10,872 nucleotides of DNA from a virus (taxonomy: Duplodnaviria; Heunggongvirae; Uroviricota; Caudoviricetes). The DNA is taken from IMG/VR virus record IMGVR_UViG_2609459844_000005, positions 1-10,872 of that record; one strand, written 5' to 3'. Each line of letters opens with the position of its first letter. Positions within the stretch are counted from its first letter, which is position 1. Of this stretch, positions 6,001 through 9,000 are shown piece after piece. The position numbers are program-made.

Positions 6001-9000
6001 ATTAAATCCTGCCAGTGGCCACACGGCGATTATCATCACAGCGAAACCGTTATTCACCGTTATGGTACCGGCGCAATGGTGTTGTGCTGGCACTGCGACA
6101 ACCAGCTGCGTGACCAGACATCCGAATCACTCGGGCAACTTGCTCATCAAAACCTGTCAGCATGGATGATTGACGTCATCGGTCACGCAATAAGCGGTAC
6201 GCAGGAGCGTGAATTATCTCTGGCTGAATTATCCTGGTGGGCGGTCCGCAATCAGGTGGCGGACGCGCTACCGGAAGCGGTATTACGTCGTTCGCTGGGG
6301 TTGCGTGCGGAAAAAATCCGCTCAATGTACCGTGAAAGCGACATCGTACCGGGAGAGCAGACCGCCACCAGCATACTGAAGCAGCGCACAAAAAATCTTG
6401 CGCCGCTGCCTCACGCCCACCAGCAAACCCCGCCACAGGAAAAGACGGTGGTCAGCATTGCCGTTGATCCCGAGTCACCGGCTCAGTATCTCCAGCGCCA
6501 GAAATCACAACGGGAAGAGATGCCTGTATACACGCGCTGGGTAAAAACGCAGAAATGCATGACGTGTGGCAATCAGGCAGATGATCCGCATCACATCATT
6601 GGTCATGGACTGGGAGGGATGGGAACAAAGGCTGATGATTTGTTTGTTATTCCGCTGTGCCGTAAATGCCATAGCGAACTACACGCCGGGGTAAAAGATT
6701 TTGAAGAAAAACACGGCAGCCAGCTGTTGTTGCTGATTCGTTTTTTAATGCACGCGAGAAATTCGGGTGTTCTGAAGTGGAAAGCATAAATGACTGAACG
6801 CATAGAATTTGTTTTGCCTTACCCGCCAACGGTGAACACTTACTGGCGTCGTCGTGGCAGCACATATTTTATCTCGGAGGAGGGAAAGCGTTATCGCCGG
6901 GCTGTGGCGCTTATTGTTCGCCAGCAGCGGCTGAAATTAAGCCTGTCCGGAAGGCTGGCGATAAAGGTGATTGCAGAGCCACCGGATAAGCGTCGTCGCG
7001 ACCTGGACAATATCCTGAAAGCACCGCTGGATGCGCTGACGCATGCGGGAGTGTTAATGGACGATGAGCAGTTTGATGAAATCAATATCGTTCGTGGTCA
7101 GCCAGTATCTGGTGGACGTCTGGGGGTGAAAATTTACCCCATAATGCATGAAGAGCAGGTCAAAAAATGAAACTGGAAGATTTACCGAAATACTACTCCC
7201 CAAAATCCCCTGGCCTGACCGATGCATCGGCCTCAACGTCAAAAGATGCGCTGAGTATCACTGATGTGATGGCCGCGCAGGGCATGACTCAGAATCGGGC
7301 TGAGATGGGTTTTTCTGCGTTCCTGGGGAAAATGGGCATCAGTATGAATGACAGGGCGCGGGCAACAGAATTACTGGCAGAGTATGCACTCAGTCGGTGC
7401 GATCGTGTGGCGGCGTTGAGAAAACTTCCGGCAGAAATAAAACCGGTAGTGATGCGCATTATGGCTTCGTACGCTTTTGAGGATTATGCCCGCAGCGCAG
7501 CGAGTAAAAAGCAGTGCCCTTGTTGCTATGGGGAAAAATTTATTGAAAGCGTAGTTTTTACAAACAAGGTCCAGTATCCGGATGGTAAGCCGCCGGTATG
7601 GGCAAAGTGTACGAAAGGTGTGTATCCTTCTTACTGGGAAGAATGGAAAAAAGTCAGGGAGGTGGTAAAAGTTGCCTGTCCGGAGTGTGGCGGAAAGGGT
7701 GAGGTTTCCACCGCCTGTAAGGATTGCCGTGGGCGTGGTGTCGCCATTCATCGTGAAGAGTCGGTAAAACGTGGTATGCCTGTTATCAGAGACTGCCAGC
7801 GTTGTGGTGGTCGTGGCTGTGAAAGACTACCATCAACGGAGGCATTTAATGCCATACGCAAAGTGACGAGTGCTATCACGCTTGATACGTGGAAAAAATC
7901 AGTGAAACGCTTTTACGATACGTTGGTGGTTCGGTTTGACATTGAAGAGGCATGGGCGGAGCGGCAGTTAAAGAGGGTAACGCGATAGTGTTGTTGATTT
8001 TTCCCGAATTTGTGGTAAATTTGCCCTAACGATGGGCGTTTTATGCCTGACGTTAGAAGATTTTTTACACCCCGCCGCCTGGCGGGTTTTTTATGACTGA
8101 AATCGCGTCAGTACAGTAAACGCGCTGGTGGCGGTGAATACCTGTCTTTCAGCTTGCTGGCTTTTTCGACAAGAGTTATTGGTGTGTCACGTTAACCGGA
8201 AAAGGGAAAAAGACATGCTAAAACAGCAGGATATGACAGAAACCGCCAGAGTGGTGTTTAATGAATTAAGCGTTACCGAACCGGCGACAGTCGGGGAGAT
8301 AGCGCAGAATACTTACCTTTCACGCGAACGCTGCCAGTTAATACTGACCCAGCTGGTTATGGCGGGTCTGGCAGACTATCAGTTCGGTTGTTACAGACGC
8401 CTTCCGCAGTGAAGGCTTTTTTATTTGTGGTAAATGGGCGGCTGGTGGGTGTTAGGGGCACCCACCAGCCATCTGCTCATGCGTTGGGTTCACAAGCAAA
8501 CCTCAGGCCCACTGCTTTGCGCAAAAGCAGAATGAGCCTATCAGAGACAGGCTTAATGATCCATGCTTAATACTGTAAAAATATCCAGTTGTGAGTTAAT
8601 CAACGCCGACTGCCTGGAATTTATCCGGTCGTTACCCGAAAATTCTGTTGACCTGATAGTCACGGACCCGCCGTACTTTAAAGTGAAGCCTGAGGGCTGG
8701 GATAACCAGTGGAAGGGCGACGATGATTACCTGAAGTGGCTGGACCAGTGTCTGGCGCAGTTCTGGCGGGGGCTGAAACCTGCCGGAAGTCTTTACCTGT
8801 TCTGTGGTCATCGCCTGGCATCTGATATCGAAATCATGATGCGTGAACGCTTCAGTGTGCTGAACCATATTATCTGGGCGAAGCCGTCCGGACGCTGGAA
8901 CGGATGCAACAAGGAAAGCCTGCGGGCGTATTTCCCCGCCACAGAGCGCATTCTGTTCGCGGAACATTATCAGGGGCCGTATCGTCCGAAAGATGCCGGG

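Follow-up and report, generated by a model that had tools for sequence, protein, structure and literature searches.

Late-gene antiterminators named Q belong to several protein families, with lambda Q assigned to PF03589, the Q protein of phage 82 to PF06323 and the Q protein of phage 21 to PF06530 (PMC9388147). In lambda Q, residues 61–113 and 153–207 form the body, a four-helix bundle with a helix-turn-helix (HTH), and residues 114–152 form the arm, a zinc ribbon that touches positions 11–13 of the Q-binding element (QBE) as well as region 4 of sigma; the zinc-binding domain (ZBD) of the β' subunit of RNA polymerase (RNAP) is contacted by residues 110–112, 117 and 122–126, and residues 1–44 refold into a torus, or nozzle, in the RNA exit channel (PMC9388147). 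Here, these features are compared with those of a predicted Q gene (7167–7988, + strand, 273 residues) of the Caudoviricetes record IMGVR_UViG_2609459844_000005, of which positions 1–10,872 were analysed; this whole stretch of 10,872 nucleotides (nt) is referred to as the window. With a probability of roughly three in four, the gene encodes a lambda Q-family late-gene antiterminator that looks functional and has the long form also seen in phi80 Q and the QuuQ-like proteins, in which two additional cysteine motifs behave as an autonomous, dispensable module.

The identity of the protein as a Q antiterminator, as given in a preliminary description of the window, is in agreement with the Pfam search, where PF03589 (Antitermination protein Q) is found at 170.9 bits (E-value 6.3e-51, cut-off 26.7) and is matched by two separate stretches of the protein. 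PHROG 127, 'anti-termination protein Q-like', is matched with an E-value of 3e-110, and the best PDB sequence match is the lambda Q chain 7ubm_Q (E-value 1.2e-38). In the latter alignment, residues 1–113 correspond to lambda residues 1–113 and residues 182–273 to lambda residues 116–207, the alignment being broken only between residues 113 and 182; in the multiple alignment of phage Q proteins about 39% of the aligned columns are identical to lambda Q, and BLAST gives 29% across the insertion gap. PF06323, the family of phage 82 Q, is not matched at an E-value of 0.01 or lower in the same Pfam search. The presence of the one match and the lack of the other place the protein in the lambda Q family and rule out membership of the phage 82 family. 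The earlier reference to a 'QuuQ/phage 82 family' had thus merged two unrelated families: the motifs discussed below are, as had been surmised, normal for QuuQ-type proteins, but the link to phage 82 has to be dropped.

The predicted fold is also that of lambda Q. When the AlphaFold2 (AF2) model of the full-length protein (62-sequence alignment, mean predicted local distance difference test (pLDDT) score of 84.5) is compared with the PDB using Foldseek, lambda Q chains make up all eight best fold matches, and the top match is the NusA-engaged chain 7ubn_Q (E-value 4e-13, TM-score of 0.77 when normalised to the target). The search of viral folds in BFVD with this model gave no match at an E-value of 0.001 or lower; its tail consists of small phage proteins resembling the DnaJ cysteine-rich (CR) domain, with E-values above 0.1. 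Residues 1–44 (7167–7298, +) align with lambda residues 1–44 and would, by homology, be the counterpart of the torus segment; Met1, Leu3, Glu4, Lys8, Thr24, Thr32, Asp33, Ala37 and Gly39 are invariant in this part of the alignment. The β' ZBD-contact residues Ser110, Ala111 and Ala112 are kept, and the first two are invariant in the alignment of phage Q proteins. Residues 221–273 (7827–7985, +) align with lambda residues 153–207, and this region, which contains helices 223–233 and 239–272 in the AF2 model, would be the body's C-terminal half, with the HTH helices H4 and H5 of lambda Q.

The translation of 7167–7988 contains the four cysteine motifs listed in the preliminary description, and these span exactly the range 7515–7820 that was given there: motif 1, CPCCYGEK (Cys117 and Cys120; 7515–7538, +), motif 2, CPECGGKG (Cys171 and Cys174; 7677–7700, +), motif 3, CKDCRGRG (Cys184 and Cys187; 7716–7739, +) and motif 4, CQRCGGRG (Cys210 and Cys213; 7794–7817, +). 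The final residue of motif 1 is not that of the consensus, being a lysine instead of a glycine. Motif 4 had been written as CQRCGGRGC, of which the first eight residues stand; the trailing Cys218, directly after the motif, does not belong to it, being a tyrosine in almost all homologues. A search of all six frames of the whole window for the pattern C..C.G.[GK] returns only these four sites, which therefore are no chance scatter. Among 62 homologues (47–84% identity), Cys117, Cys120, Cys171, Cys174, Cys184, Cys187 and Cys213 are invariant, and Cys210 is kept in at least 90%.

Motifs 3 and 4 align with Cys118/Cys121 and Cys144/Cys147 of lambda Q, respectively, and by this alignment they are the counterpart of the lambda arm's only zinc ribbon; in the AF2 model the unit between them consists of strand 192–195, helix 196–202 and strand 206–209, as in lambda. 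Motifs 1 and 2 are part of the segment of residues 114–183 (7506–7715, +), which has no counterpart in lambda Q and for which a zinc site, 'Zn-A', is proposed. The approximately 68–70 extra residues stand in place of lambda residues 114–115, and, given the limits of the lambda body and arm, this is exactly the body-to-arm junction. In the model, motif 1 (residues 117–120) precedes strand 125–136 and motif 2 (residues 171–174) follows strand 159–170, with residues 137–158 forming the tip, so that one long β-hairpin would have the two motifs at its base. The contrast with the single zinc site of lambda Q, as drawn in the preliminary description, is borne out by the alignment.

Most members of the lambda Q family are of the four-motif form. 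All four motifs are present in seven of the nine phage Q proteins that were aligned with the Q of the window (those of mEp237, Erwinia Eho49, Salmonella SEN22, the QuuQ-like mEp460, Providencia PSTCR3, Aeromonas AsXd-1 and mEp021), the two-motif exceptions being lambda and P22 (207 residues), and when the inserted segment is used by itself as the query, phi80, HK225, Gifsy-2, Fels-1, phiEt88 and others are matched. A profile search of 1.84 billion representatives at 50% identity returned 298 family members. The motif census was limited to the 42 50%-identity representatives in which the DY.RSA anchor is present and the C-terminal half is complete; four or more motifs are found in 24 of these and two motifs in nine, the remainder being truncated or frameshifted. 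In this census, motifs 1 and 2 are spaced by 14 to 63 residues, corresponding to a hairpin of about 10 to 60 residues across the family, whereas motifs 2 and 3 nearly always have a spacing of 13 residues and motifs 3 and 4 one of 25–26. The two-motif forms occur in at least four separate places on a neighbour-joining tree calculated from the columns outside the insertion. The pair P0226 (200 residues) and P0198 (269 residues) captures such a difference: they are 83% identical outside the arm, and in P0226 motif 1, the hairpin, motif 2 and the linker are cleanly gone, with the unit of motifs 3 and 4 being intact. The four-motif majority, the scattered two-motif forms and the clean loss in P0226 suggest that the four-motif form is probably the older state and that motifs 1 and 2 behave as an autonomous module. 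Two family members deviate from both forms. P0001 (337 residues, the single member of its cluster, from a contig of 1814 bp) has six CxxC motifs, a second copy of the segment comprising the end of the body and the insertion (residues ~96–178) being fused before a Q sequence that resumes at about residue 20, and this extra segment may be either a misassembly or a real duplication. In P0004 (272 residues, 16 members), motif 1 is gone by a local replacement resembling a frameshift.

The gene itself is common. Together with its downstream promoter it is present at 80% or higher nucleotide identity in 2497 of 5426 complete Escherichia coli genomes, being 100% identical in strain Z1323PEC0011, and the protein clusters at 93% identity contain thousands of members named 'antitermination protein'. 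The precomputed Pfam annotation of these clusters already includes PF00684, the DnaJ CR family, beside PF03589. The Q of the window is an ordinary and very common prophage late-gene antiterminator of an already known kind, and its motif cysteines are standard for the family, which is the outcome that the preliminary description had itself named as refuting its claim.

It is proposed that the four motifs form two separate Cys4 zinc sites by sequential pairing, 1 with 2 and 3 with 4, in which case motifs 1 and 2 would close the base of the additional, variable-length hairpin at the body-to-arm hinge. This pairing is much more likely than a nested pairing as in DnaJ, since motifs 3 and 4, whose spacing is fixed at 25–26 residues, align with the zinc ligands of lambda Q, motifs 1 and 2 are predicted at the two ends of one hairpin, and P0226 lacks exactly motifs 1 and 2 with the linker. 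Zinc binding by motifs 1 and 2, the pairing and the role of the additional module are all inferred. Several observations weigh against this assignment or limit it. The nearly fixed spacing of 13 residues between motifs 2 and 3 would also suit a zinc site formed by these two motifs, and DnaJA2 is the best, though weak, fold match of the arm-only AF2 model (Foldseek probability 0.96, E-value 0.17, TM-score 0.32), which covers residues 106–226 and is of modest quality (24-sequence alignment, pLDDT 68.6). The role proposed for the additional module is speculation, constrained by its position only.

The last two points of similarity, the constant 13-residue spacing and the DnaJA2 match, are also the structural arguments for regarding the four motifs as a true DnaJ-type CR domain, with nested zinc sites formed by motifs 1 and 4 and by motifs 2 and 3, and with a chaperone-like protein-binding surface. 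The number of CxxCxGxG motifs is that of DnaJ, PF00684 is matched at an E-value of 7e-6 and the DnaJ family TIGR02349 at 4.5e-5, the profile of the arm reaches the DnaJ CR domain 1exk at an E-value of 0.004 (lambda Q is reached at 1e-9), and some database records give homologues the name 'chaperone protein DnaJ' or 'molecular chaperone'. However, the PF00684 score of 26.7 bits is below the gathering cut-off of 32.7, the score of 23 for the DnaJ equivalog TIGR02349 compares with a cut-off of 377, and the sequence matches span only one or two knuckles. The spacings of 54, 13 and 26 residues differ from those of Escherichia coli DnaJ (about 17, 22 and 14 in 1exk), contrary to the DnaJ-like spacing that had been claimed. 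The fold matches are weak (E-values of 0.17–0.75, TM-scores of 0.12–0.32), with DnaJA2 having an E-value of 0.75 for the full-length model and all arm-only matches being above 0.1, too weak to decide on a likeness to DnaJ, and the Pfam and NCBIfam searches of Q matched neither a J domain nor the DnaJ C-terminal substrate-binding domain. Moreover, motifs 3 and 4 make the zinc site of lambda Q by themselves, and near-identical relatives lose motifs 1 and 2 jointly with the lambda-type arm intact, a loss that nested sites would not tolerate. A DnaJ-type domain is therefore very unlikely, and the likeness to DnaJ that had been noted is confined to the motifs, the PF00684 score being below its cut-off, the spacing different and the fold match weak.

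The inserted segment could also have originated by tandem duplication of the lambda-type zinc ribbon, as a repeat without a function of its own. The two PF03589-matching stretches would fit such an origin, as would the similarity of motif 2 to motifs 3 and 4 (BLAST E-value of about 1e-3, in a tiny search space). When the insertion is aligned with the arm by hhalign, however, only 16 columns around one knuckle are matched, with a probability of 29%; the hairpin of the AF2 model lacks an equivalent of the lambda arm's helix H3, and the four cysteines of motifs 1 and 2 are all strictly conserved, which implies selection. As the similarity found by BLAST and hhalign is confined to a single knuckle, internal duplication was dismissed, such an origin being hardly tenable.

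Directly 3' of the Q gene, the block GGTAAATTTGcCctAACGATGGG (also delimited as GGTAAATTTGCCCTAACGATGGG) matches the lambda late promoter pR' GGTAAATTTGACTCAACGATGGG. From the alignment with lambda pR' and phi80, a putative pR' is located at 7994–8033 (+), the activity being inferred, and it consists of the -35 element TTGATT (7994–7999, +), a spacer at the site of the QBE in lambda (8000–8015, +), the -10 element TAAATT (8016–8021, +), which is the same in lambda, and the sigma-dependent pause element AACGAT (8028–8033, +), again as in lambda. The generic promoter scan of 7900–8600 flagged no promoter, because pR' scores only 8 of 12 matches. The terminator scan finds an intrinsic terminator (8071–8092, +; CCCGCC-GCCT-GGCGGG followed by six T residues), which is tR'-like and is likely the first read-through target of Q; it is about 45–65 nt downstream of the inferred start site, a distance comparable to that in related phages. 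The same layout of pR', pause element and terminator is found 3' of Q in Evi, mEp237, mEp460 and phi80, and in phi80 both pR' and the Q site are annotated.

By analogy with lambda, Q would bind the QBE in the spacer of this downstream pR', would load onto RNAP held by sigma70 at AACGAT and would thread its N-terminal ~44 residues as a nozzle into the RNA exit channel, such that the polymerase carrying Q could pass the terminator at 8071–8092 and transcribe the methylase, tRNA and late genes beyond it. The module of motifs 1 and 2 may stiffen or extend the stalk of the arm in this complex, and may add contacts near the β' ZBD or to DNA. The conservation of the torus, body, arm, pR', pause element and terminator suggests that the loading mode is probably lambda-like, with an accessory zinc module.

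The preliminary description had instead suggested a distinct mode of engaging nucleic acid or RNAP. In such a mechanism the module could, for example, be a third DNA contact that redefines the QBE, or a new contact with RNAP or NusA that changes loading. It is located at the hinge, beside the lambda residues 110–112, 117 and 122–126 that touch the β' ZBD (PMC9388147), it shows strong conservation and is present in most of the family, and the pR' spacer, the place of the QBE, differs from that of lambda while being almost the same as in Evi and resembling those of mEp237 and Eho49, phages that have four-motif Q proteins. Divergence of the QBE is nevertheless expected between any heterospecific Q proteins. 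Every functional element of lambda Q is kept, the torus segment, body, arm and ZBD contacts as well as the -10 and AACGAT elements, in the same layout of pR', pause element and terminator, and the best fit of the model is to the engaged lambda Q. The variation of the hairpin between about 10 and 60 residues and the repeated loss of the module argue against an indispensable interface. A different way of engagement is thus unlikely. A broader possibility is that lambda Q is itself a reduced outlier of its family, most members of which have, where the arm hinges and beside the β' ZBD contact, a second zinc ribbon that makes an additional contact with DNA, RNAP or NusA and thereby alters loading or QBE recognition; this is doubtful, though somewhat less so.

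The window is about 92% identical to, and collinear with, the Stx2a-converting phage Stx2_EH1910, from rusA over quuQ, a small open reading frame (ORF) and the DNA methylase gene to three tRNA genes. The approximately 1.3-kb stretch with stx2A and stx2B in Stx2_EH1910 (L012 8458–9794) is missing in the window at 9949–9956, and the homology comes back weakly at 9956–10046 and then at 10387–10872. Judged from this comparison, the window is an stx-less relative of the late region of an Stx2a phage. The three tRNA genes, Met(CAT), Arg(TCG) and Arg(TCT) (9662–9911, +), are just 3' of the methylase gene, and the same trio precedes stx2 in Stx2_EH1910; the CAT tRNA may be the tRNA of ileZ type that Stx phages have. 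An ORF of 94 residues (8128–8412, +), with a weak match to a TrmB-type HTH (E-value 0.0065), separates the first terminator from the methylase gene, and after this ORF comes another terminator-like hairpin, at 8399–8416.

Upstream of Q are rusA and, before it, a DUF968/HNH-like YdfU homologue (5734–6789, +; counterpart L003 3568–4617). In the record of phage Evi the YdfU homologue is labelled 'Phage antitermination protein Q', and this looks like an annotation error, since the YdfU homologue has no PF03589 match. The early region includes a toxin ORF of the Hok/Gef family (5075–5287, +; PF01848, E-value 3e-23) and a homologue of the DicB cell-division inhibitor (4171–4569, −; PF05358, E-value 1e-36), with DUF1482 and DUF551 ORFs near these two. 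An ORF of 823 residues (1419–3890, −) has a C-terminal Rv2179c-like 3'-5' exoribonuclease domain (PF16473, E-value 1e-67) and long acidic, low-complexity N-terminal and middle parts, which include the zinc-ribbon-like pair CTACGQTGGGNCPDCG.

The form with a short arm, for which the lambda Q structure stands, is the minority one in the family, and no four-motif Q structure has been solved; a structure of phi80 Q or of the Q of the window would fill a real but small gap. No paper describing a second zinc module or a four-motif arm was found in a full-text search, whose reach did not include Guo & Roberts 2004 and Vorobiev et al. 2014, and zinc is not mentioned in the mEp021 paper or in the Stx pR' paper. 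In at least one Stx2a phage, Stx2_EH1910, stx2 is driven by a Q of this type, whose QBE and loading properties are therefore relevant to the expression of the toxin. The CxxCxGxG motifs occasionally cause such Q proteins to be misannotated as 'DnaJ' or 'molecular chaperone', which is presumably how P0032 and H79 (Klebsiella phage ST13-OXA48phi12.4), both four-motif homologues, received their public names. The value as a discovery is nevertheless small, as the protein is routinely annotated as 'antitermination protein', is present in nearly half of the complete Escherichia coli genomes and has the architecture of the long-studied phi80 Q.

Compared with the known systems, the Q proteins of phage 82 (PF06323) and phage 21 (PF06530) share the job and the genomic position of the Q of the window (PMC9388147), but they belong to unrelated families without a match here. 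The CR domain of DnaJ/Hsp40 (PF00684; PDB entry 1EXK) and anti-TRAP share the CxxCxGxG knuckle, which in the Q of the window occurs in four copies within about 100 residues; this Q differs from the DnaJ CR domain in being below the Pfam threshold, in its spacing, in having no J domain, in its weak fold similarity and in its zinc pairing, which is probably sequential and not nested. Lambda Q (PDB entries 4MO1 and 7UBJ–7UBN) has the same torus-forming N terminus, four-helix HTH body and zinc-ribbon arm, as well as the same TAAATT and AACGAT elements, but it has 207 residues and one zinc site, whereas in the Q of the window the body-to-arm junction is enlarged by about 70 residues, which include two further CxxC knuckles. 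The closest systems are the phi80/QuuQ-type Q proteins. The phi80 Q (gp17; YP_007947979, 269 residues), also of the lambda Q family, has the same four motifs and long insertion at 41% overall identity, including the long YP.GKPP.W...PS.WE.W hairpin; the QuuQ-like mEp460 Q (gp50; 43% identity) has the four motifs around a shorter hairpin; and the 'quuQ' product of the Stx2a phage Stx2_EH1910 is nearly identical, with 95% identity over the motif region. When only the inserted segment is considered, phi80, Gifsy-2, Fels-1, HK225 and the Stx2_EH1910 'quuQ' are 43–95% identical to the Q of the window. In these phages, as here, the gene follows rusA/ninG-type genes and precedes a pR' with a sigma-dependent pause element, and the differences are of sequence divergence only, which extends to the promoter spacer and presumably, therefore, to the QBE.

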